A DNA stretch of 64,000 bases from a phage, in the sequence record PZ452598.1, one strand, 5' to 3'. A program made the translations under genes and the position numbers. The stretch's first letter is position 1; each line of letters begins with the position of its first letter. Below, one piece after another: positions 1-61,474 of this stretch. Below the pieces are notes generated by a model. The model was not told the origin of the DNA, did no database searches, and saw only the letters and a list, made by a program, of their open reading frames with translations.

Positions 1-2618
1 ACAAACGATTTTTGGAACAAAGTTGAGTGGTCAATCCAAGATAGCACATCAGAACGAATTTCTTTTGGAAGTTCTGTACCCGATGGCCAAGCAATGCACT
101 TGTCACCAAATGGATTTCCTTCACGTAATGGAAGAACCATTACTTTATTTCCATCCAAAATTGGAGCTACACCTAAACCGCTAACAGCTCGACGATAAGT
201 TAGCACACCACGAATATGGAACGGGCATTTAAATCCTGGCCAACCTTTATCATCATATTTCGCTATATCGTTCGCAGTTTTTACTTCAGCAATAACTTTA
301 TAGTCAAGTTGACGATATTCTTTCTCGAAGTTCTTGTAGTATTCTTGGACAGACTCTTCACCTTCCTGAAGAATACGACGAATACTTTCTTCGAGAGCTT
401 CTTGCACTGCTTTTGGTGTTGAACTCTGCTGAGTTTCCATACCCATGATTTTTAGATGCGGTTCAGCAAATCGCTTATCTTCCATATCATAAACGTTCAG
501 AGCATAACGCTTTTTCGCTTTCCAAAATCCACCAACGCCCTTTGAACCAAGCGGAGGGCAAGAAATAGCTTCACGGTCCATATGCATCAGATGCTCGCGG
601 TTATTCATATAATCACATAACTCACGATATGCAGCATCAATCATAGGTTCCATCTTTTTCTTACCGAACTGATTCATGAATTCAACCAAATCGTTCTGCT
701 CTTTGAATCGGTCAAGACCAACTTTTTCAATAACTTTATCTACGCAAACATATACCGAATCAGTATCACCTGCTGCAATGAAATCTTCATCATTAGTTCC
801 GCATACTTTATTCAGATATTCATTAATTTTACGAGCAATCCACTGAATACCGACTTGGCCGAAAATTGTGATAGCAGTAGCATTTCGCAAATCATAGTAA
901 CGGAAATGAATATTACCAAGAGCACCATAAAGACTGTTAATGAGAATTTTACGGTTCAGCTGATTTGTATTAGCAAGTGTAGCTGCTTTTTCACATTCTT
1001 CAATCAGACTATTGAGAACAGATTCGGTGTAATTCGATAGTTCATTTAAGAAATCATCACTGAACTTAACATATCGTTCAACTTCTGGTTTAGTTGAACA
1101 AGACCCTGCGCCTTTCATAATAATCTTTTTAATAGCTTCGGCATTCATTTCTTCAGCGAACATTTTCTTTTTCCAGTCTTTACGCTGGAAAAATACTTTA
1201 GCGATTTCCTTTGGAATGATACCTTCTTGATGTTTATCATACATCCATCCATTCGGAGAACAAGAATATTCATCACTCGGTTTAGGAGCTGTTCCTGCGA
1301 TATATTCATGAATTGGATGAACTTTAAACTGACCACGAATAGTTTCAGGACTAATGTTAACCTGGCGAATAATGCTCGGATACAGAGACGTCAAGTCAAA
1401 ACTCATAATGTATCGACGTGCAATTGGTTTAGGTTCAAACACAAATGCACCCGGAAAACTCTGTTTAACGTGCGAACCTTGTTGAGGAATAACCTTATGT
1501 TCACCTTTCAATGAGTTAAAAATAATAGCATCCCAAGTTTTAATAGGACTCATTACACCAGAAAAAGGCATTTTAGCGTAATAAGACATACTTAAAACTA
1601 GATCGATAAACCCACGAATTTTATCGATTGCTTGAACTGATTCTACGTCAATGATGTTATAACTAATGTATCGTTGATGATTAGTCTCACGAAGTTTATT
1701 AATAGGACCGTCGTATGGTAATTTACCTTTTTTGGTTTCATGTTGAGCAACTGATTCCAAAGAGAATGACGGCAAATTAGTAAAAGCGAATTTCTTGTAC
1801 AAATCTAAATAATCAAGAATAGATACGCCATCAATAGAATAAATTTCTTTGCTACCGTACATATTTTGAATTAGTTTAGATTTTACCCGACCGATTGGAG
1901 AGAAACGTTTCATACTACGTTCACCCAGAATCATTTTAACACGATTCATGATATACGGAACGTCAAACCCCTCAATATTCCAACCAGTAAAAATAGCAGG
2001 TCGTTTCTGTTCCCAAAGATTGATATATTCCATGAGCATATCACGCTCATTATCGAATGGCATATAAATTACTCGGTCAAGAATTTCTTGAGGAACTTCA
2101 TCACCACCTTCACAGTCAAGCTTAGCAGCTAACTTTGCATCCCATTTTGATACTGAACCGTACATTGAATTCAAAAGGTCGAAAACATAAAAACGATCGT
2201 CAATTGAATCGTAATGAGTGATAGCATCAATTTCATATTCTGCTTTCATTGGGTCAGGAAATTTATCACCAGTAACCTCAATGTCACAGTTAGCTACACG
2301 AACAAATTTTCGGTCATAAACAATTTCTGAACCATATGTATCACTTATATAAGCGAGTTTAAAATCGTTCATACCGAGAGCTTCGAGACCGATGTCTTCC
2401 ATTCGCTTCATCCAATCTCGAGCATCTTTCATTGATGGAAATTTTTGAGGAGCGCAGTTTTTACCATAGATGTCTTTGTATTTTGACTCTTCCTTACAAT
2501 GCCTAAACATAGTTGGAAGATATTCTACTTCACGGGTACGTTCCTTTCCATTTTCATCAATATAACGTTCAACAATGTTATTTCCGACTGTTTCAATAGA
2601 GATATAAAATTCTTTCAT
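1..2618 (-). CDS. 43: DNA polymerase (family B), 3' end beyond window start
   Basis: Minus-strand ATG at 2616-2618 (rc ATGAAAGAATTT = MKEF) lies just downstream of regA as in T4. No long ORF on either strand is listed across 1-2600, consistent with one frame open to the edge, which was not translated in full. Confidence 0.88.
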   Translation of the reverse strand, partial: MKEFYISIETVGNNIVERYIDENGKERTREVEYLPTMFRHCKEESKYKDIYGKNCAPQKFPSMKDARDWMKRMEDIGLEALGMNDFKLAYISDTYGSEIVYDRKFVRVANCDIEVTGDKFPDPMKAEYEIDAITHYDSIDDRFYVFDLLNSMYGSVSKWDAKLAAKLDCEGGDEVPQEILDRVIYMPFDNERDMLMEYINLWEQKRPAIFTGWNIEGFDVPYIMNRVKMILGERSMKRFSPIGRVKSKLIQNMYGSKEIYSIDGVSILDYLDLYKKFAFTNLPSFSLESVAQHETKKGKLPYDGPINKLRETNHQRYISYNIIDVESVQAIDKIRGFIDLVLSMSYYAKMPFSGVMSPIKTWDAIIFNSLKGEHKVIPQQGSHVKQSFPGAFVFEPKPIARRYIMSFDLTSLYPSIIRQVNISPETIRGQFKVHPIHEYIAGTAPKPSDEYSCSPNGWMYDKHQEGIIPKEIAKVFFQRKDWKKKMFAEEMNAEAIKKIIMKGAGSCSTKPEVERYVKFSDDFLNELSNYTESVLNSLIEECEKAATLANTNQLNRKILINSLYGALGNIHFRYYDLRNATAITIFGQVGIQWIARKINEYLNKVCGTNDEDFIAAGDTDSVYVCVDKVIEKVGLDRFKEQNDLVEFMNQFGKKKMEPMIDAAYRELCDYMNNREHLMHMDREAISCPPLGSKGVGGFWKAKKRYALNVYDMEDKRFAEPHLKIMGMETQQSSTPKAVQEALEESIRRILQEGEESVQEYYKNFEKEYRQLDYKVIAEVKTANDIAKYDDKGWPGFKCPFHIRGVLTYRRAVSGLGVAPILDGNKVMVLPLREGNPFGDKCIAWPSGTELPKEIRSDVLSWIDHSTLFQKSF

Positions 2619-18364: not shown

Positions 18365-18573
18365 CGAGGATAAACAGCTGCATGTCACCATGCAGTTCAG
18401 ACTATATCTTCAACTCTTAGAGTTGTCTGCCGTTTCGGGTCGCTTGACCCTACTCCCTTACATTCATCAGGGATAGTCGTTGGGCATTTACAGCTACTGC
18501 TGATTTAGCAACGGATTGTCTCAGTGAGAGTTTCCCGTTTTAGGCAGATTTTACATGAGCTTGACTTACGTTA

Positions 18574-19111
18574 ACTCATAAGCTTGGAATGCATCGTATA
18601 CGTCTTTTTCTGTTTTAGATTGAGCATAATTCAACGCATCAGCGATTTGCCATTTTTCTGCATCCTCAATATGTTTTGCATAGGTGCGTTTAACATAAGG
18701 AGAAAGTACTTTATCTACATTCGCAAAAGTCGTTCCGCCGTATTGGTGAGAAGCAACTTGCGCAGTAATTTGTGCCATAATTGCAGTAGCAACTCCAATT
18801 GATTTAGGAGTTTCAATCTGCGCATTACCAAGCTTAAATCCGTTTTCAAGCATTCCTTTTAAATCTACTAAACAGCAATTAGTAAATGGAAGAGCAGGGG
18901 AATAATCAATATCATGCACGTGAATAATTCCGCTTTCATGCGCTTTCATAATAAAAGACGGGACCATATTTTTGGCAATGTGTTTAGACACAATACCAGC
19001 CATAAGGTCCCGTTGAGTTGGAAAAACACGAGAATCTTTATTAGCATTCTCGTTTAAAAGGTCTTTATTAGTTTTATGAATTAATCCTTCAATTTCTTTT
19101 TCAATTGTCAT
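18574..19111 (-). CDS. nrdD: anaerobic ribonucleoside-triphosphate reductase NrdD, exon 1
   Basis: N-terminal 179 codons (MTIEKEIEGLIHKTNKDLL...). The track ORF runs 8 nt into the intron before its stop. Confidence 0.88.
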
Positions 19112-27652: not shown

Positions 27653-28234
27653 CTAACCGAGCTTTTTAGTTAATTCATTCCAATGTTTTCTACACAAAGA
27701 AACATAAATTTCATCACCAATACAAATTTGATTACCTTCTTTAACTGGTGTTCCATCTTCCATTAATCGAGCTGTCATAATCGCTTTTTTACCACAATGA
27801 CAAACTGCTTTTAGTTCAATAAGTTTATCTGCAATCGCTAAAAGTTCTTTAGAACCTTCAAATAATTTTCCAGCGAAATCAGTCCTTAGCCCATAAGCCA
27901 TAACAGGAACATTATATGTATCAACAATTCGGCTCAATTGATGCACCTGTTCAGTTTTTAAAAACTGAGCTTCATCTACAAATACGCAATGAATATCTTT
28001 TTGTGCTTCAGCCCATTTATAGAACTCGAAAATATCCATATCATCTGTAATAATATTCGCTTCCTGCTTAATTCCAATGCGAGAAACGACTTCACAGACA
28101 GAATCGCGAGTATCAATAGCAGGCTTAAGAACTAATACACTCATTCCACGTTCTTTATAATTATGTGCAGCAGTCAAAAGAGAAGCAGATTTTCCAGCAT
28201 TCATTGCTGCATAAGTAAAAATTAAACTCGCCAT
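27653..28234 (-). CDS. tk: thymidine kinase
   Basis: 193-aa ORF with P-loop (AAMNAGKSASLL) and Zn-finger cysteines (CHCGKK...CRKHW). Length matches T4 Tk. Confidence 0.95.
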   Translation of the reverse strand: MASLIFTYAAMNAGKSASLLTAAHNYKERGMSVLVLKPAIDTRDSVCEVVSRIGIKQEANIITDDMDIFEFYKWAEAQKDIHCVFVDEAQFLKTEQVHQLSRIVDTYNVPVMAYGLRTDFAGKLFEGSKELLAIADKLIELKAVCHCGKKAIMTARLMEDGTPVKEGNQICIGDEIYVSLCRKHWNELTKKLG

Positions 28235-28235
28235 C

Positions 28236-28424
28236 TTAGTCCTTAGTTAAATTTTCTAAATATGTTTCTAAATCATTTTCAGCTTTATCGATAGATTTTA
28301 CTAATTCGTAATATGTTTCGGCATCTCCATATTCAGAAGATATTTCAAAAGACAAATCCTTTTCTAAACTAATAATTTCACCAACTAAAAATAATATTTC
28401 GTTCTTTTGTTCGCGAGTAATCAT
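28236..28424 (-). CDS. small acidic protein (T4 tk.1 position)
   Basis: 62 aa. Paralogous to the next ORF (shared TREQKNEILFLVGEI / SKEQKDTLFSLIHEV pattern). Confidence 0.55.
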   Translation of the reverse strand: MITREQKNEILFLVGEIISLEKDLSFEISSEYGDAETYYELVKSIDKAENDLETYLENLTKD

Positions 28425-28612
28425 AAGGAATTTATATAATCAATGAGTTCTTGTTCTTTATTATCGAATTCTTTAGAAAGTTCTTCGTACTCGTTTGCGC
28501 TAAAAGGACCGCATTCATTACAAACTTTTTCCAATTCACTATTTTTATCCATAACTTCGTGGATAAGAGAAAAGAGTGTGTCTTTTTGTTCTTTGCTTAA
28601 ACTCATAACCAT
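28421..28612 (-). CDS. small acidic protein (T4 tk.2 position)
   Basis: 63 aa. Paralog of the preceding ORF. Confidence 0.55.
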   Translation of the reverse strand: MVMSLSKEQKDTLFSLIHEVMDKNSELEKVCNECGPFSANEYEELSKEFDNKEQELIDYINSL

Positions 28613-28830
28613 GTCACCTTTAAGCAGTATTCTTCTACATGCTGTTTACGACCTTTCTTATCAATAAAGGTATATTCAACGAATGTTCCAATGTAGTCTT
28701 TATCTACATCATGTGGACTATTAATTGGACATTTAGTGCGACAAATGCGTTCCCATTGACGAATAATTACTGCCTTATTCTTTGGGTCATATGGATGTGG
28801 ATAATGTATATTCATAATAATGGTTCCCAA
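28603..28830 (-). CDS. hypothetical protein (T4 tk.3 position)
   Basis: 75-aa ORF. Confidence 0.5.
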   Translation of the reverse strand: MGTIIMNIHYPHPYDPKNKAVIIRQWERICRTKCPINSPHDVDKDYIGTFVEYTFIDKKGRKQHVEEYCLKVTWL

Positions 28831-29279
28831 TCAACAATCACAATTTCTAATTTAGAGGAATATGTATCTAAAATCCCCTCAATAATATCCCAGTTCCCTT
28901 TACCTATGCCTGCACCAATCCTAGGCATATAGATTGTAGGTTTAATCAGTTTATTTTCACCAAACTCATTTAATTCTAACATACAATTCATTAAAGCGGA
29001 ATACTCAAAATTTGGCCCTGGTTGAAATTGAGTATAAAGATTGAAGCAGTAAGCTTTATGAGTCCTAAAGTATTTTTCATAGACTGAGTAAGAACCGAGT
29101 TTAGTTACATCACCCCATTCAGTCTGTAATTTATCAGCTTCCAAAATTTTAGGGAAAGCTTTGGTTAATTGACCCGCTACGCCTGAACCCATAGTATGAA
29201 AACAATTACATCCATGTGCAATATTTTTACCTTCAGCGAAAAGGGCGACAATATCGCCCTTGATATATTTTACAATCAT
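28812..29279 (-). CDS. macro-domain-like protein (DarG/TARG1-type candidate ADP-ribosyl hydrolase); T4 tk.4 position
   Basis: 155 aa. N-terminal KGDI...IAHGCNCFHTMGSGVAGQL and distal PRIGAGIGKGNWD resemble macro-domain phosphate-binding loops. No search was run. Confidence 0.55.
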   Translation of the reverse strand: MIVKYIKGDIVALFAEGKNIAHGCNCFHTMGSGVAGQLTKAFPKILEADKLQTEWGDVTKLGSYSVYEKYFRTHKAYCFNLYTQFQPGPNFEYSALMNCMLELNEFGENKLIKPTIYMPRIGAGIGKGNWDIIEGILDTYSSKLEIVIVDWEPLL

Positions 29280-29623
29280 CTAGTACTCAATCCTCGATTA
29301 TAAGAATCTACCAAACGGTCAACCATTGAATGACAAGCGGCTTTATCTTTCTCCTCCGCAACTGAACATTCTAAGGTATTCCACTTTTTAGCATATCGTT
29401 TTAACAATGTATCGTTTTTGTATCTGCTTGATTTATCTCTTTCTCCGTCTTTATATGCATATATTAATTTCTGTGCAAATTCAGCTTGGCATGCCTTATT
29501 TTTCCCACAATAATCTGCCGCAGTGCGGTTTACATATTCTCTAATTTCAGTATATGATGTATCTGCTGACGCAGAAGCAGAAAATGAAATTAATCCTATA
29601 CATAAAACCAAAATTTTAGTCAT
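29276..29623 (-). CDS. vs: valyl-tRNA synthetase modifier Vs (secreted, signal peptide)
   Basis: 115-aa ORF with signal peptide (MTKILVLCIGLISFSASASA). Position between tk.4 and regB as in T4. Confidence 0.7.
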   Translation of the reverse strand: MTKILVLCIGLISFSASASADTSYTEIREYVNRTAADYCGKNKACQAEFAQKLIYAYKDGERDKSSRYKNDTLLKRYAKKWNTLECSVAEEKDKAACHSMVDRLVDSYNRGLSTR

Positions 29624-30161
29624 TTACTATTTCCAAAAGTTTATTATTTTTAAGGTAATTAGCCTTTTCTAGGACTTCAGAAGCATATTTAGAACCTGCT
29701 TTAACATTCCATCCCGAATTATAAGAGGATATTGCTTTTCTTATATCGCCCTTATGTATATTTAACCAATAAGAAAGTTCAATGTACGCCCAGGAAGCTG
29801 AATTGGATCGTTTATTCAACATTCTTTTTATTTCAGCATCGGTCATATTATAACCAAGTTCCTTAACTCTTGCTCGCATAGTAGGCAAATAATTTTGGAA
29901 CATTCCGTAGGCGTGATGCTTTGGTTTAGATTTTAAATTAACTCCGCCAGAGCTTTCTTGCCATAAAATGGCAGCCATTATATGACCTAATCCGCTCTTG
30001 TGGATATTTTTGTGTGTTTTATATTTTCCATCCTTAGAAAATTGTTCCCCGAATTGATACGCGTAACGCATGTTATCGAGTTGGACATTACTGAAAGTAT
30101 GCTCGGAGCTATGTGCCATCATTGAAATGGCCAATAGACCAGCGAGTAGTGCTTTTCTCAT
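29616..30161 (-). CDS. secreted lytic-transglycosylase-like protein (T4 vs.1 position)
   Basis: 181 aa with signal peptide and SLT-like motifs (ILWQESSGG, YGMFQ). Confidence 0.65.
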   Translation of the reverse strand: MRKALLAGLLAISMMAHSSEHTFSNVQLDNMRYAYQFGEQFSKDGKYKTHKNIHKSGLGHIMAAILWQESSGGVNLKSKPKHHAYGMFQNYLPTMRARVKELGYNMTDAEIKRMLNKRSNSASWAYIELSYWLNIHKGDIRKAISSYNSGWNVKAGSKYASEVLEKANYLKNNKLLEIVND

Positions 30162-30168
30162 GCTTACC

Positions 30169-30630
30169 TCATTGAGTTTTAATTACTGCTTTAGAAGCCT
30201 TTCCTGGTAAACGACGACTGTTGATAATTGCCATCCTACATTGAAGTGACGGGTCTTTGAACTTCTCGTTAGGTTTACAAACTGTAAATCCAAGCCAAAG
30301 ATTTCCATCTGTGATTTCTAAACGTCCAGGACGATATTCAACCCCATCAATAAAATCCTCGTCAATGTCAGGACGCGGAGGCATACTCAGGAATTCATTA
30401 ACTTCTAAAACATGGTCTTTTATTTTATGGAATAATTCAAAAACGTATGTCTCATCAATCTCCCGTTGAATTGCGCGATCAAGAAGATGTTGAGAATATT
30501 TTAGATGAAACGATGAGACTCCTGCTGCTTTTGATGCCTCACGAATCTCATTGTTAATTTGACGAAACTCCGACTCAAAGTGACGACGAAGCTTATTTCG
30601 ACGGATAAAAACTTCTGTATTGATAGTCAT
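30169..30630 (-). CDS. regB: sequence-specific endoribonuclease RegB (cleaves GGAG in early mRNA)
   Basis: 153-aa ORF preceded by its own early promoter. Length matches T4 RegB. Confidence 0.85.
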   Translation of the reverse strand: MTINTEVFIRRNKLRRHFESEFRQINNEIREASKAAGVSSFHLKYSQHLLDRAIQREIDETYVFELFHKIKDHVLEVNEFLSMPPRPDIDEDFIDGVEYRPGRLEITDGNLWLGFTVCKPNEKFKDPSLQCRMAIINSRRLPGKASKAVIKTQ

Positions 30631-30649
30631 GTTATTCTCCTCTTAACTG

Positions 30650-30690
30650 ATAGAAAAATTATACCACAGTCAAGAGGAAAAGTAAACAGT
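30650..30690 (-). promoter_or_regulatory. T4-type early promoter for regB
   Basis: Minus strand reads GTTTACTTTTCCTCTTGACTGTGGTATAAT. Confidence 0.55.
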
Positions 30691-30968
30691 TATTCTTTAA
30701 ATCTAATCAATTTATTCATAGACTTTGAAACTTCGGCACGAACCTCATGTAGATTTTTGAGCTGTTCAAGACGCTGCGTATAGTAAGCAATTTCATCTTC
30801 TTCGAGACAGTCCTGCGAATCTTCTTTAAGATAACGTGCATAGTCCTGGAAAGCGTTACGGACTACTTCCTGGAAGTCATCAAGACTTTGAATTTTCTTA
30901 GGAGCAACAGATACACGACGAGGGGCAGTATAATACTCATAACCAAACCCTGCGCTTAATTGAGCCAT
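30690..30968 (-). CDS. hypothetical protein (T4 vs.3 position); start trimmed
   Basis: Track ORF 106 aa. Likely start [13 protein letters not shown], whose ATG overlaps the upstream stop (TAATG). Confidence 0.5.
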
Positions 30969-31270
30969 TAGTATTTTTCCTCTGGTTGGAACACTGCACG
31001 ACAAGCCCACATACTGGCTTCTTTGAGTTTCGTTTTAGCAATAGTTAACTGATCGAGACTTTCAGCATAATTCTTCGCGAATTCACAGTCTTCGCAATTA
31101 TCTAGTGCTTCCCAGAATTCATCATATAAAGCATCAAAGATAAGTCCTAAACGAACTTCAGCGTCTTTAATAGCATTTACTTTACCGATTTTCTCTTCAG
31201 TATGTGGTTTATAACCCTTAATATCTTCAATCATATTTGACTTCCTCACCAGTACATAAATCGTATTCAA
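30968..31270 (-). CDS. candidate anti-CBASS cyclic-oligonucleotide sponge (Acb2-like; T4 vs.4 position)
   Basis: 100-aa track ORF with a TTG start; first ATG is at codon 13. Identity rests on position (second ORF after regB) and size. The sequence itself was not recognised. Confidence 0.45.
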
Positions 31271-31448
31271 CTAAACGAATAGGTTCATGAATGCCATAGC
31301 CTTGAACAGAAATTTCTGTCGTAGGATAAATTCCATCAATATCACCCATATTCCACGCTTCATTAAATTGCTGTTCGCCTGAGTTACTAAACCACTCGGC
31401 GAAAGCATTTAGCACATCTTCAGAACCTTCAATAATTATCTTTGCCAT
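31227..31448 (-). CDS. hypothetical acidic protein (T4 vs.5 position)
   Basis: 73-aa ORF. Confidence 0.5.
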   Translation of the reverse strand: MAKIIIEGSEDVLNAFAEWFSNSGEQQFNEAWNMGDIDGIYPTTEISVQGYGIHEPIRLVEYDLCTGEEVKYD

Positions 31449-31810
31449 TACAAACTTTCAGTAAAGGTACGAGCGATAACGTCGCGCTGCTGTTCCGGAG
31501 TCAGAGAGTTAAAGCGAACTGCATAACCGGATACACGGATGGTCAGCTGCGGATATTTTTCCGGATGCTTAACTGCATCTTCCAGAGTTTCACGACGCAG
31601 AACGTTAACGTTCAGGTGTTGACCACCTTCAATTTTAACTGTAGGTTGTGGCTCAATTTCAATTTCACGGGCATGCAAACCATAGAAAATTTCTGGGTCT
31701 ACAAAAGAGTCCTCTTTAAAGGTTTTAGAGACAATAATTCGTGCTTGAATACCATCTTCAAAATAAATAGTACCTTTATGTGTGCCTTCAAGAATTTGAT
31801 ATGCTTTCAT
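31448..31810 (-). CDS. autonomous glycyl-radical cofactor (GrcA/YfiD homolog; T4 Y06I)
   Basis: 120 aa. C-terminal half ([63 protein letters not shown]) is essentially the E. coli YfiD/PFL C-terminus with glycyl-radical motif RVSGY. Confidence 0.85.
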
Positions 31811-31817
31811 ATAAACC

Positions 31818-32147
31818 TCAATTAGAAAATAAATTTATCCAAGATTGTTCTTTAATTAAAAATGGCTCAGAATCATATGCCATTAAACTTTGCGTAATTA
31901 ATCCTTTAAAAGGTCCATCAATAAATTCCATGGTAAAATATGGAATTTTATTCATTAGCCGTGCATTAGGAGCAGTGCACAAAACTCTGCATCCTTTGAA
32001 TACGCCTTTTTGTAATTTGTATTGCTTGGGATAAAATTCGCTCAAAATGTTATTTTTTGCCAAAATTTCAAAATGATTCACCAATTTATTTTTAATAGTT
32101 TTTGGCGAAAAATAAAGATATTCGAAAAGCTGAGTGTCTGTCATCAT
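31818..32147 (-). CDS. hypothetical protein (T4 vs.7 position); start trimmed
   Basis: Track ORF 126 aa. Likely start [10 protein letters not shown] with ATGA-type overlap of the upstream stop. Confidence 0.5.
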
Positions 32148-32794
32148 TGCATTCCGATTACGAAAAACTGTGGACGAGTAATACCACCAATGCAACATTT
32201 ACTATTACAGCAGTAGTGTACGGTGTCAATATGGACACTATAAATCTTATCCATATCAGGAGATTTGACAGGCTCATCAATTATATACAAAATTCGCGAA
32301 AGCTTTAAACCTCTGAACTTGCTTCCTTTATTACCAATAAAACTGCGTACAGAATCAGTAAATAAACGAAAACGTATATCATCATTAGAATAACGCGAAA
32401 ATTCCTTTTTGATGTTATTTGCAGAAATTTTAGCATAAGCTGAAGTATTAGAAAGAACAATAACTGTTCCGCCATCATACAACCAATTAGCAGCAAAGTT
32501 AGTCACAGCAATTGATTTACCGGATTGACGTCCACCATCTAGTCGAAGTGTACAATACTGTTTAAGTAAGTCTTCAAATGGCGGGATATATTCGTTTTTA
32601 CAAATTTCTTCTACTCTAGCATCAGAATGGTGTGTAAAAGCATTCATCAGGGATAGATAAGGACCAGTTAAAAATGTTCTCATTTCTTCTCTATAAGTTT
32701 GGGCCATTCCGTGGCGCATGAATTGTCCATTTCTGTATTTACCCATTACCGCGCTTGGGCTCGACCTTATTACAGGTTGGCGGGAATCCCTCAT
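32144..32794 (-). CDS. P-loop NTPase-like protein (T4 vs.8 position)
   Basis: 216 aa with Walker A-like GGRQSGKS and Walker B-like ILYIIDEP. Cysteine-rich C-terminus (HYCCNSKCC). Confidence 0.55.
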   Translation of the reverse strand: MRDSRQPVIRSSPSAVMGKYRNGQFMRHGMAQTYREEMRTFLTGPYLSLMNAFTHHSDARVEEICKNEYIPPFEDLLKQYCTLRLDGGRQSGKSIAVTNFAANWLYDGGTVIVLSNTSAYAKISANNIKKEFSRYSNDDIRFRLFTDSVRSFIGNKGSKFRGLKLSRILYIIDEPVKSPDMDKIYSVHIDTVHYCCNSKCCIGGITRPQFFVIGMQ

Positions 32795-32820
32795 ATAATC
32801 ATGAGGTCCAGGTTGTTCCC

Positions 32821-33237
32821 TTATGCATAAATCGCCTTACCGTAGTATTTGTACCAAGTAGGACGTTGTGCAATTTTTTCATCTAAACGAGCTTGTGATA
32901 TAGCAATAGAAGCTTCATGGGGAATATAATCACCACGGAATTCCTGAGGAATATCACTAATATCCTGGACTGTAGTATCCTTGATATTAAAACCACGTTT
33001 TAAACATTCAGCTATAAGCTCAATTTGACGTTTACGTAAGAACTCGAGCTTATCGTAAAAGAATGTAACATGACCTGCGCCAAGGATAAAAGTAGGACTG
33101 ATTTTAAAATCACGAACACGTTTACCGTTAGCAACATGCTTACGAACTGCACCAAAAACACGCGGCAATTCACGATATTCAGCCATTAAGTGTTGGTCAG
33201 CCAATTCAGATACTAAAGTAAGGTTGATACGAGTCAT
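32821..33237 (-). CDS. denV: endonuclease V (pyrimidine-dimer DNA glycosylase/AP lyase)
   Basis: 138-aa ORF ([34 protein letters not shown]...). Matches T4 DenV in length and sequence. Confidence 0.95.
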
Positions 33238-33297
33238 TTTAGTGTTCTCCTGTAGTTGATAGGTCTATAGTATCATACCTACAGGAGATGTAAACTG

Positions 33298-33600
33298 TTA
33301 TTTATCTTTAATTGCTTTAGCTGCTTCGATAGCCGCTTGCTGAAGGTCATCCATAGACATGCCGAACTTAGAAGCAAAGTTATCAATTTTCTTTTCGACG
33401 GCATTCAAAGGCTTGGCCTGTTTACCTTCATTAGCGCCAGGAAGAGCGAGAATACGCTCTCTGTCAATATAAAGGCTTACAAGTTTCTTACGGTCTTTAT
33501 CGGGCAAATCATGAAATGAATGGGCCTTTTTATTTACAGCGGCTTCTAATTTACCTGCGCCCACTCGCGCTTCGGCAATAAATTCTTGATATGTTTTCAT
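33298..33600 (-). CDS. ipII: internal protein II
   Basis: 100 aa with capsid-targeting N-terminus MKTYQEFIAEA shared with ipIII. Lysine-rich. Confidence 0.85.
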   Translation of the reverse strand: MKTYQEFIAEARVGAGKLEAAVNKKAHSFHDLPDKDRKKLVSLYIDRERILALPGANEGKQAKPLNAVEKKIDNFASKFGMSMDDLQQAAIEAAKAIKDK

Positions 33601-33615
33601 ATGTTTCCTTTAAAT
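33569..33615 (-). repeat. 47-nt exact direct repeat, copy 1 (ipII 5' end plus leader)
   Basis: gcttcggcaataaattcttgatatgttttcatatgtttcctttaaat is identical at 34266-34312. Covers the SD and first 10 codons. Confidence 0.9.
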
Positions 33616-33639
33616 GTAAATATTTTTATTATTCTATCC

Positions 33640-33683
33640 TAGAATTGTGATAATATATTCACAATTCTAGGAGTTGTAAACTG
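33640..33683 (-). promoter_or_regulatory. T4-type early promoter upstream of ipII
   Basis: Minus strand has GTTTAC (-35) and an AT-rich -10 (TATATTAT) at appropriate spacing. Confidence 0.5.
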
Positions 33684-33715
33684 CTTTTATTTAAGCGTCC
33701 CAAGTATAAGCTTTA

Positions 33716-34297
33716 TTAAGAATTACCACGGGCTGCATTAGCAACGGCGTAAGCGTACTGAATATTAGCGTCTTTAAACTTACCTTTAGAGGTATCTATT
33801 TCTGCCTTAAAGCCGCCTTTAGTCATAACATCGGCAAATTCTTTACGGAAAGCCATTGCATCAAGACCTTTCCATGATGATTTATGCTTGGCAAATTCAA
33901 GACCTGCGAAGTTGACAGCTTTAGCCAATTTATTATCAATGACCCATTTACCGGCTTTAGGCACAAACTTCGGGCCTTTCTGTTTAGAGAACAGTTTTAA
34001 ATTCCAGCGGCGAAGGTCTGCATCAGCTTTAACAAATTCTGAGTCTAAGTTACTAGCAACAACATCTTCAATATGAGCAAATTTAAGTCCGTCAACTTCA
34101 ATATTTAAATCGGTACGCCAGCGAAGTCCTTCCCAAGCGAAGGCTTTAAAGTCGGAAGCCTTTGTAGCTAAGTACCGTTCAATAGGAGCTGTTTTAGGGT
34201 CAAAGCCGTTTCCTGATCGGTAGGTCCACTCATCTTTGTTAATGCCTTTGGCCTTTACTACAGAAGCTTCGGCAATAAATTCTTGATATGTTTTCAT
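33716..34297 (-). CDS. ipIII: internal protein III
   Basis: 193 aa, N-terminus MKTYQEFIAEASVVKAKG. Length matches T4 IPIII. Confidence 0.85.
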   Translation of the reverse strand: MKTYQEFIAEASVVKAKGINKDEWTYRSGNGFDPKTAPIERYLATKASDFKAFAWEGLRWRTDLNIEVDGLKFAHIEDVVASNLDSEFVKADADLRRWNLKLFSKQKGPKFVPKAGKWVIDNKLAKAVNFAGLEFAKHKSSWKGLDAMAFRKEFADVMTKGGFKAEIDTSKGKFKDANIQYAYAVANAARGNS

Positions 34298-34312
34298 ATG
34301 TTTCCTTTAAAT
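34266..34312 (-). repeat. 47-nt exact direct repeat, copy 2 (ipIII 5' end plus leader)
   Basis: Identical to 33569-33615. Confidence 0.9.
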
Positions 34313-34334
34313 ATTTTAATTAGTAATTGTCTAT

Positions 34335-34382
34335 TCAAGTAATTGTGAATATACTATCACAATTCCAAGAGAAAGTAAACAG
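34335..34382 (-). promoter_or_regulatory. T4-type early promoter upstream of ipIII
   Basis: Minus strand reads GTTTACTTTCTCTTGGAATTGTGATAGTATATTCAC. Confidence 0.5.
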
Positions 34383-34384
34383 CT

Positions 34385-35353
<969 letters not shown>

Positions 35354-39052: not shown

Positions 39053-39127
39053 TTGGTATCCCGCCCTGGGATCGAACCAGGACCGCAAACTTAGAAGGAT
39101 CGTATGCTATCCATTACACCAGCGGGA
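39053..39127 (-). tRNA. tRNA-Arg (anticodon UCU), CCA encoded
   Basis: Hand-folded: acceptor GUCCCGC/GCGGGAU, T-arm GGUUCGAUCC, anticodon loop CUUCUAA, 3' ACCA. Confidence 0.8.
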
Positions 39128-39133
39128 CGTAAT

Positions 39134-39799
39134 TTAAAATTTCATTTTTCGACCTTTAAACCATCCTTCTGGAATTGGGTCAGTTTTCTTAATACGTTTA
39201 GAAACTTTTTCATCTAATGAATGAATCCACATCATACCGAATTGGGAATTCTTTTCACCTTTCTGGTGATTATTTTTGGCGTGAGATTCTTTCATTTTAT
39301 TAATAGTTTCAGGAGTATGATGCTTATTTAGAAATCTGCTATTATTTAAAAATTTTTCCCTGTATTCAGGAGTTGACCACAAACGTTTAAATACATTTGA
39401 ACCAATTTTACGATATTTTTCTTGAAGTAAAATATCATTTTCAAAACGTGACTTAAACGATTTAGCTCCTTTTAAGCTAGCATCTTTCTTCTGGTTTAGC
39501 ATTCCAGGAATATTTACATGATCCCATCCACCTTCACCGCCAAGTTTTAAATTATACACATCTGGTCTATTTAAAAACTCTTCTGTGACAATATTTTTCT
39601 CGGCTTCAAGCATAGATTCTTTATCGTCAAAATACTCTAATATTTCTTTAGAAAAATTTTCTATACCATATTTATCTTGGGCTCTTTTTAATAATTTACC
39701 AGAACCCATATATCCATCATCTAAATTTTCGGTAGAATGCACACCAATATAAATTTTATTATTAATTTTATTTGTTATTTTATAAGTGTAATAGAACAT
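39134..39799 (-). CDS. segB: GIY-YIG homing endonuclease within the tRNA cluster
   Basis: 221 aa with GIY-YIG motif ([32 protein letters not shown]). Position and length match T4 SegB. Confidence 0.85.
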   Translation of the reverse strand: MFYYTYKITNKINNKIYIGVHSTENLDDGYMGSGKLLKRAQDKYGIENFSKEILEYFDDKESMLEAEKNIVTEEFLNRPDVYNLKLGGEGGWDHVNIPGMLNQKKDASLKGAKSFKSRFENDILLQEKYRKIGSNVFKRLWSTPEYREKFLNNSRFLNKHHTPETINKMKESHAKNNHQKGEKNSQFGMMWIHSLDEKVSKRIKKTDPIPEGWFKGRKMKF

Positions 39800-39840
39800 A
39801 AATATCTCCTATTTCTAAGAGTATTTATGTTCTCAAAATA

Positions 39841-39914
39841 TGACCCAGACCAGATTTGAACTGGTAACCTTTCCCTTATGAGGGGACTGCTGCTAACCAT
39901 TGAGCTACAGGGCC
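39841..39914 (-). tRNA. tRNA with anticodon CAU (Ile in T4; Met by anticodon alone)
   Basis: Hand-folded: T-loop UUCAAAU, anticodon loop CUCAUAA, no encoded CCA. One acceptor-stem mismatch, so ends approximate. Confidence 0.7.
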
Positions 39915-39915
39915 T

Positions 39916-39991
39916 TGGTGCTGATTGACGGAATCGAACCGCCGACATCCTCATTACAAGTGAGGTGCTCTACCTACTGAGCTAAATCAGC
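39916..39991 (-). tRNA. tRNA-Thr (UGU), CCA encoded
   Basis: Acceptor GCUGAUU/AAUCAGC, D-arm AGCUCAGUAGGUAGAGC, anticodon loop CUUGUAA, T-arm GGUUCGAUUCC. Confidence 0.8.
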
Positions 39992-39998
39992 AAAATTA

Positions 39999-40085
39999 CG
40001 GAGGCGATAGGATTTGAACCTATGAGTCGCCGGAGCGACTGCCGGTTTTCAAGACCGGTGCATTAAACCACTCTGCCACGCCTCC
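39999..40085 (-). tRNA. tRNA-Ser (UGA), long variable arm
   Basis: 87 nt. Anticodon loop CUUGAAA, T-arm GGUUCAAAUCC, extended variable arm, no encoded CCA. Confidence 0.8.
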
Positions 40086-40087
40086 AG

Positions 40088-40161
40088 TCTCCATACAAGG
40101 ATTTGAACCTTGGACCTCCTGATCCCAAATCAGGCGCTCTACCAAACTGAGCTACACGGAG
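40088..40161 (-). tRNA. tRNA-Pro (UGG)
   Basis: Anticodon loop UUUGGGA, T-arm GGUUCAAAUCC, D-arm AGCUCAGUUUGGUAGAGC. Confidence 0.8.
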
Positions 40162-40171
40162 TAAATTAAAT

Positions 40172-40245
<74 letters not shown>

Positions 40246-40250
40246 AAATT

Positions 40251-40339
40251 TGGTGCGAGAAGTGGGACTCGAACCCACAAGGAAATCATTCCGCAGCATT
40301 TTAAGTGCTGTGCCTTTACCAATTTGACCATTCTCGCGC
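40251..40339 (-). tRNA. tRNA-Leu (UAA), long variable arm, CCA encoded
   Basis: 89 nt. Acceptor GCGAGAA/UUCUCGC, anticodon loop CUUAAAA, T-arm GGUUCGAGUCC. Confidence 0.8.
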
Positions 40340-40411
40340 TGGGAATAAAGGACTCGAACCTTTGCATCTAGCAGTCAAAGTGCTATGCCTTACCAACTTG
40401 GCTAATTCCCA
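40340..40411 (-). tRNA. tRNA-Gln (UUG), abuts tRNA-Leu
   Basis: Acceptor UGGGAAU/AUUCCCA, anticodon loop CUUUGAC, T-arm GGUUCGAGUCC. Directly adjacent to Leu. Confidence 0.75.
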
Positions 40412-41832: not shown

Positions 41833-42529
<697 letters not shown>

Positions 42530-60014: not shown

Positions 60015-61474
60015 CAGATATTGTACTGAATGACTTACCATTCGTTGACGGCCCTCCTGCAGAGGGCCAGAGCCGCATTTCCTGGATTAAAAACGGCGAA
60101 GAAATATTAGGAGCTGACACACAGTATGGAAGTGAAGGCTCAATGAATAGACCTACGGTTTCTGTACTAAGAAATGTTGAAGTTCTTGATAAAAACATTG
60201 GAATACTTAAAACATCTTTAGAAACCGCAAATAGTGATATTAAAACAATTCAGGGCATCTTAGATGTATCTGGTGATATTGAAGCTTTGGCCCAAATAGG
60301 TATCAATAAAAAGGATATTTCTGACCTCAAAACGCTAACCAGTGAACACACAGAAATATTAAATGGAACTAATAATACGGTTGACAGTATTCTTGCCGAT
60401 ATTGGTCCATTTAACGCCGAGGCCAACTCTGTATACAGAACGATCAGAAATGATTTACTGTGGATAAAGCGTGAACTTGGACAATACACTGGTCAAGATA
60501 TTAATGGTCTTCCTGTTGTAGGAAATCCTAGTAGTGGAATGAAGCATCGCATTATTAATAATACTGATGTCATCACTTCGCAGGGAATACGTTTAAGCGA
60601 ATTAGAAACAAAATTTATTGAATCTGATGTAGGTTCTTTGACCATTGAAGTTGGTAATCTTCGTGAAGAGCTTGGACCGAAACCACCATCATTTTCACAG
60701 AACGTTTATAGTCGTTTAAATGAAATTGACACTAAACAGACAACAGTTGAGTCTGACATTAGTGCTATTAAGACCTCAATAGGATATCCAGGAAATAATT
60801 CGATTATCACGAGTGTTAATACAAACACTGATAATATTGCATCTATTAATTTAGAGCTAAATCAAAGTGGAGGTATTAAACAGCGTTTAACCGTTATTGA
60901 AACTTCCATTGGTTCAGATGATATTCCTTCGAGTATTAAAGGTCAAATCAAAGATAATACAACTTCAATCGAATCTCTAAATGGAATCGTCGGTGAAAAC
61001 ACTTCATCTGGCTTAAGAGCGAATGTTTCATGGTTAAACCAAATTGTTGGAACTGATTCTAGCGGTGGACAACCTTCTCCTCCTGGGTCTCTTTTAAACC
61101 GAGTTTCTACAATTGAAACTTCTGTTTCAGGCTTGAATAACGATGTTCAAAACCTACAAGTAGAGATTGGTAATAACAGCACAGGAATTAAAGGGCAAGT
61201 TGTAGCGTTAAATACTTTAGTAAATGGAACTAATCCAAACGGTTCAACTGTTGAAGAGCGCGGATTAACCAATTCAATAAAAGCTAACGAAACTAACATT
61301 GCATCAGTTACACAAGAAGTGAATACAGCTAAAGGCAATATATCTTCTTTACAAGGTGATGTTCAAGCTCTCCAAGAAGCCGGTTATATTCCTGAAGCTC
61401 CAAGAGATGGGCAAGCTTACGTTCGTAAAGATGGCGAATGGGTATTGCTTTCTACCTTTTTATCACCAGCATAA
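60011..61474 (+). CDS. wac: fibritin (whisker antigen control)
   Basis: 487-aa coiled-coil ORF ending in the foldon ([27 protein letters not shown]). Confidence 0.97.

Follow-up and report, generated by a model that had tools for sequence, protein, structure and literature searches.

The open reading frame on the minus strand at positions 30968..31270 of the window (the whole stretch of phage DNA that was analysed, 64,000 nucleotides long) is vs.4 (acb2) of bacteriophage T4, which starts at the ATG at 31234 and encodes a hexameric cGAMP sponge that counters CBASS; we put the probability of this reading at about 98%. The gene, structure and mechanism of T4 vs.4/acb2 are already published, and the mechanism is established in the literature on the identical protein rather than inferred. 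Gene identity, family membership, functional residues and the start codon, the last by comparative and ribosome-binding-site evidence, come from the present analysis; for the hexamer, the Kd values, the inhibition of the effector and the phenotype of the knockout we rely on work on the identical protein.

Because it is identical to HM137666 over 28000..34400 and matches further T4 records, the window is bacteriophage T4. Window positions 28000..34400 are the same at every base as positions 60098..66498 of HM137666 (T4T), so that in this region the window position equals the T4T position minus 32098; in a megablast search of the phage collection, the query 30500..31900 matched several Escherichia phage T4 records, including T4T HM137666, MT984581 and KJ477684, at 100% identity and 100% coverage, and the 2003 reference NC_000866 at 99.7% identity. 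All genes of the interval lie on the minus strand. Annotation of the T4 records places regB at 30169..30630, vs.3 (92 aa) at 30690..30968, vs.6 at 31448..31810, vs.7 at 31818..32147, vs.8 at 32144..32794 and denV at 32821..33237; vs.4 occupies 30968..31234, with an ATG start, 88 aa and a TAA stop at 30970..30968, and is annotated at the corresponding positions of both NC_000866 and HM137666, while vs.5 (73 aa) occupies 31227..31448, with a TGA stop at 31229..31227. The original prediction had counted six reading frames between regB and denV, equated them with vs.3 to vs.8 and put the flagged one, the second, at the vs.4 position; the two annotated T4 records give exactly those six genes and name the second vs.4.

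The four genes from vs.6 to vs.3 are tightly packed: vs.6 and vs.5 overlap in a TAATG at 31448, vs.5 and vs.4 overlap by 8 nt (ATGATTGA), and vs.4 and vs.3 overlap by 1 nt in a second TAATG at 30968. These close overlaps suggest that vs.6, vs.5, vs.4 and vs.3 may be translationally coupled within one transcript. In the six-frame list, the vs.3 frame (30690..31010, minus strand) reaches a GTG at 31010 within vs.4, while annotation begins the gene at ATG 30968. Compared with NC_000866, the window has an additional G at 31398 and AT for TA at 31260..31261, in both of which T4T and other re-sequenced T4 genomes agree with it; because of these differences vs.5 encodes 73 aa instead of the 58 aa of NC_000866 and overlaps vs.4 by the 8 nt mentioned above. 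A 9-nt direct duplication (CTCTATAAG) of NC_000866 is absent from the window at 32688, within vs.8, which is therefore 651 nt long (216 aa) and not 660 nt; a further one-base difference from NC_000866 is found at 32716.

In a search of PDB sequences, the 88-aa product is identical at 88 of 88 residues to the six chains of entry 7UQ2, named 'Vs.4' (E=1.9e-57). It also matches the Pfam family PF24729 (Acb2_Tad1_hairpin; Acb2/Tad1, hairpin domain) with 71.4 bits (E=7e-20) over profile positions 1-58 of 58, against a curated gathering cutoff of 27 bits, and PHROG 717 with 113.6 bits (E=2e-32), the family from which Jenson et al. gathered 198 Vs.4 homologues (PMC10097602). The next PDB matches are to p26, which is Acb2 in Pseudomonas phage PaMx33 and is deposited in two forms (8H2J, 8IXZ and related entries); they are weak (E=0.027), and are collinear over residues 4-85. 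This alignment sets Y8 and K23 of Vs.4 on the Tyr and Lys of the PaMx33 motifs KIKGYRD and NRVKELG, numbered Y11 and K26 in PMC10312549, with which PaMx33 Acb2 binds cyclic dinucleotides. Since the pairwise match to PaMx33 is weak, it is the Pfam and PHROG profiles and the published structures that establish membership in the Acb2 family. At E<=1 the PDB sequence search returned only Vs.4, the two PaMx33 p26 forms and one unrelated chain, with no Tad1 chain among them, and the protein proved no closer to Tad1 than to Acb2. No NCBIfam model matched Vs.3, Vs.4, Vs.5, Vs.7 or Vs.8.

Translated from the ATG, the window protein has every published cGAMP contact (Y8, H11, K23, R79 and F82) and all of the hexamer-interface residues L29, A66, A73 and A77, in addition to T12, F33, L60 and S74, which are screen-hit or mutated positions, and Y37, A57, D61, T64 and T68, which have been discussed in connection with the missing trinucleotide pocket; all of these positions match the numbering of PMC10097602 and PMC10312549. 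The assignment to Acb2, which had been made from position, is thus borne out by the identity to 7UQ2, by both profile matches and by the complete set of published functional residues, and the alignment to T4 Vs.4/Acb2 proposed along with it is full-length for Vs.4, and weak if collinear for the PaMx33 protein.

Conservation was assessed in an alignment of T4 Vs.4 and 10 homologues sampled across the tblastn ranking, at 28-77% identity. G7, Y8, N20, K23, A66, E72, A73, M75, W76, A77, C78, R79, V81 and P84 are invariant among these 11 sequences, and H11, L29, S74 and F82 are conserved in at least 90% of them. Conservation is high over the first 33 and the last 24 residues and breaks down in the middle third (approximately residues 34-64), where the homologues are hypervariable and indels reach about 15 residues; the helix lining the cyclic-trinucleotide pocket of PaMx33 Acb2 (PMC10312549) falls in this variable part. 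At the equivalents of PaMx33 R67 and T74, by which the trinucleotide-pocket subgroup (PaMx33/JBD67 type) was to be recognised, the window protein carries D61 and T68, which sets it apart from that subgroup.

The published work on this protein joins genetics, biochemistry and structure. Of five T4 mutants sensitised to Cap2-defective CBASS, Jenson et al. (2023) found four with a mutation in vs.4, and a vs.4 knockout had an approximately 50-fold lower titre on the Cap2-mutant CBASS strain; the Kd of Vs.4 1-88 for 3'3'-cGAMP was about 31 nM, and a 2.0 Å crystal structure and ultracentrifugation revealed a hexamer with three bound molecules of cGAMP, every one of them lodged between a pair of protomers (PMC10097602). 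In the same study Vs.4 blocked the activation of CapV by cGAMP, an activity lost in Y8, F82, L29, A66, A73 and A77 mutants (PMC10097602). Independent isothermal titration by Cao et al. gave a Kd of about 84 nM for T4 Vs.4 and no binding of cA3 (PMC10312549). In the work of Sullivan et al., T4 acb2/vs.4 proved necessary and sufficient as the trigger of Panoptes; T4 Acb2 sequestered 2',3'-c-di-AMP without degrading it, the ligand coming off intact after proteinase K, and its effect was lost with either Y8A or F82C (PMC12657218).

Put together, translation from ATG 31234 yields a helical protein of 88 aa, six copies of which form a homohexamer, and each of its three dimer interfaces makes a pocket for one molecule of 3'3'-cGAMP or another cyclic dinucleotide, bound with nanomolar affinity. 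Y8 and F82 stack on the bases, while hydrogen bonds and salt bridges come from Y8, H11, K23 and R79. The signal that the cGAS-like enzyme of the host CBASS produces is thus held uncleaved and its concentration kept under the threshold of the effector, such as the phospholipase CapV, which is not activated, allowing the T4 cycle to be completed. The protein had originally been described as a sponge for cyclic oligonucleotides, and this stands as far as cyclic dinucleotides are concerned but does not extend to cyclic trinucleotides, which are not bound (PMC10312549); for that reason T4 Vs.4 is more accurately called a 'cyclic-dinucleotide sponge'.

Where the protein begins can be read in two ways. 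The six-frame list gives 100 codons from a TTG at 31270, with the ATG at 31234 lying 12 codons in and opening a frame of 88 aa, just as had been remarked at the outset; the minus strand reads ...CGTTTAG TTG AAT ACG ATT TAT GTA CTG GTG AGG AAG TCA AAT ATG ATT GAA... at this point. A 100-aa protein carrying a 12-residue N-terminal extension ahead of the Acb2 fold would be compatible with a frame that is open from the TTG and with the use of TTG as a permitted start codon in bacteria, yet the ORF caller reports TTG 31270 simply because an in-frame TAG stands directly before it and no start-type codon comes earlier. No Shine-Dalgarno core resembling GGAG or GAGG is present in the 30 nt that precede it (GCTATGGCATTCATGAACCTATTCGTTTAG); the ATG, by contrast, has a GAGG core 9 nt upstream (31244..31247, minus strand), read from the minus strand as ...GGTGAGGAAGTCAAATATG. 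The 36 nt of the extension (31235..31270, minus strand) lie outside vs.4 and entirely within vs.5, at the 3' end of its coding region. Comparison with 10 homologous loci argues in the same direction: their upstream in-frame peptides are mutually unrelated, so that the extension is not conserved, and in Yersinia phage TG1 an in-frame TGA stands directly ahead of the vs.4 ATG. The homologues start MIEDIKGY, M(S/A)IEDIKGY or, in phage BI-EHEC, MGIEDIKGY, the last encoded from GTG-GGA-ATC behind AGGAGG. Moreover, the Pfam domain begins at residue 7 of the 88-aa form, the N-terminus of PaMx33 Acb2 is longer than that of the 88-aa Vs.4 by only about 2 residues, the Vs.4 1-88 construct is fully functional (PMC10097602), the published numbering (Y8, F82, D61 and others) agrees with the ATG start (PMC10097602, PMC10312549), and GenBank X04567 annotates 'ORF 62.5 (AA 1-88)' with a ribosome_binding_site at vs.4. 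Initiation at TTG 31270, which lacks a Shine-Dalgarno core, falls inside vs.5 and would add residues that are unconserved in 10 loci and dispensable in the active 1-88 construct, was accordingly rejected and is hardly credible. On the comparative and ribosome-binding-site evidence, the start of vs.4 is assigned to the ATG at 31234; of the range of about 88-100 aa first proposed, the 88-aa form is the annotated and experimentally used gene, and the additional residues of the 100-aa form are not part of it.

A different question is whether CBASS inhibition is what Vs.4 mainly does in natural hosts, or whether it acts on some other nucleotide signal or in another physiological function, with cGAMP binding secondary. 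Such a role would fit the wide range of cyclic dinucleotides that T4 Acb2 binds, 2',3'-c-di-AMP included (PMC10312549, PMC12657218), as well as the hypervariable, indel-rich centre of the homologues, but the genetics point elsewhere, as most of the CBASS-sensitised mutants fell in vs.4 and the defect of the knockout is CBASS-specific (PMC10097602). The residues that contact cyclic dinucleotides are, in addition, the most conserved positions of the alignment, and neither cA3 nor cAAG is bound by T4 Acb2 (PMC10312549), which together make another main role very unlikely. Somewhat less remote, although still unlikely, are two ideas based on the gene overlaps and the small size of Vs.3 (92 aa) and Vs.5 (73 aa): either the vs.6-vs.5-vs.4-vs.3 run might be a counter-defence cassette, with Vs.3 and Vs.5 as anti-defence factors co-translated with Acb2, or Vs.4 might have a further ligand. 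Inhibition of CBASS by sequestration of cyclic dinucleotides is the reading retained here, with no sequence feature speaking against it.

Homologues of Vs.4 were found by tblastn in 1236 of 50,697 phage records, most of them Straboviridae of Escherichia, Klebsiella, Shigella, Enterobacter and Yersinia. E. coli phage vB_EcoS-716R3, a 46.7-kb partial genome, has a homologue with 30% identity, and Escherichia phage BI-EHEC, a Phapecoctavirus of the Stephanstirmvirinae and hence outside Straboviridae, has one with 78% identity (L003, 1495..1764). The presence of so similar a protein in a phage outside that family suggests that the gene may have reached BI-EHEC by horizontal transfer. The BI-EHEC gene has an apparent GTG start behind AGGAGG, and the deposited coding sequence (1606..1764) covers the C-terminal 52 aa only. 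In Karamvirus CC31, Jiaodavirus UTI-K4, Pseudotevenvirus RB16 and leE, and Slopekvirus phT4A (L006-L010, approximately 1133..1776), vs.4 comes right after vs.6 with overlapping stop and start codons, and vs.5 is absent or relocated; the pairing of vs.4 with vs.6, a GrcA-like glycyl-radical gene, is thus more conserved than the T4 gene order. Several homologues are misnamed in GenBank, as 'RegB-like RNA endonuclease' in Yersinia phage P8 and 'putative pyrimidine dimer DNA glycosylase' in WL-3, and that of CC31 bears a 'PRP8 spliceosome subunit' note (loci L005, 1501..1779; L007, 1495..1776; and H33, MT968995); the remaining ones are mostly 'hypothetical protein'.

Among the neighbouring products, Vs.3 matches PHROG 2037 (138.3 bits, function unknown), whose profile spans only residues 22-92 of 92, and Vs.5 matches PHROG 1986 (148.5 bits, function unknown). 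Vs.6 contains a glycine-radical domain (66.8 bits). Vs.8 has a Walker-A-like GGRQSGKS, belongs to PHROG 1488 (function unknown) and weakly resembles terminase large subunits in their ATPase region (PHROG 2, E=1.7e-5). Searched against Pfam, Vs.3, Vs.5, Vs.7 and Vs.8 gave no match over the cutoffs. Further along the minus strand, tk.4 (28812..29279) carries a Macro domain (27.7 bits, cutoff 22), and vs.1 (29616..30161) carries an SLT lytic transglycosylase domain (25.1 bits, cutoff 21.3) after a hydrophobic N-terminus.

Rfam detected no RNA family in or near 30968..31270; elsewhere in the window, it placed a group I intron at 18378..18609 (minus strand, 105 bits) and the T4 tRNA cluster at 39057..40411 (minus strand), with eight tRNAs, of which tRNA-Arg is separated from the other seven by segB. 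Between 29500 and 34500, promoter-like sites numbered 16 against 16.4 expected, none being assigned to vs.4, and terminator-like sites 3 against the 3.2 expected from shuffles. A terminator-like hairpin at 31003..31020 on the plus strand was discarded as not meaningful, the number of sites being about what chance would give. In the six-frame list, the plus strand at the locus holds nothing but short chance reading frames.

As the genetics, biochemistry and structure of vs.4/acb2 have been on record since 2023, and the gene has by now also been recognised as the trigger of the Panoptes decoy-nucleotide defence, the present result is no discovery. What the check adds is that inference from position alone was right in the regB-denV interval of T4, that the start codon can be placed at the ATG, and that many GenBank records still name vs.4 homologues 'hypothetical' or wrongly.

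Compared with known systems, the window gene is in all respects like T4 Vs.4/Acb2 (7UQ2; PMC10097602), with which it has every residue, the genome and the locus in common and from which no difference was found. PaMx33 Acb2 (p26; 8H2J, 8IXZ) resembles Vs.4 in its PF24729 domain, its similar length (92-93 aa), the aligned Y11/K26 and Y8/K23 pairs and a hexameric assembly with three cyclic-dinucleotide pockets; the two proteins are only about 24% identical, and PaMx33 Acb2 takes up cyclic trinucleotides in a second pocket, which involves R67 and T74, whereas T4 Acb2, with D61, T68 and an unkinked helix, binds neither cA3 nor cAAG, a capacity that a D61R mutant fails to restore (PMC10312549). Thoeris anti-defence 1 (Tad1) has the hairpin domain of PF24729 in common with Vs.4 and is likewise a hexameric small-molecule sponge, but its ligands are the gcADPR signals of Thoeris, and Vs.4 belongs to the Acb2 branch. 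Within T4 itself, the counterpart of vs.4 is acb1 (57B), which lies at 41833..42291 on the minus strand, is annotated as 57B in HM137666 and is identified by Pfam PF23474 (Acb1; 202.7 bits, cutoff 27) and by PDB 7T26 'Acb1' (E=4e-62). Encoding a cyclic-oligonucleotide phosphodiesterase, it is one of the two anti-CBASS genes of T4, approximately 10.6 kb from the other in the window, and the two products act against the same signals by different means, Acb1 being a nuclease that degrades cyclic oligonucleotides and Vs.4 a sponge that holds cyclic dinucleotides intact.
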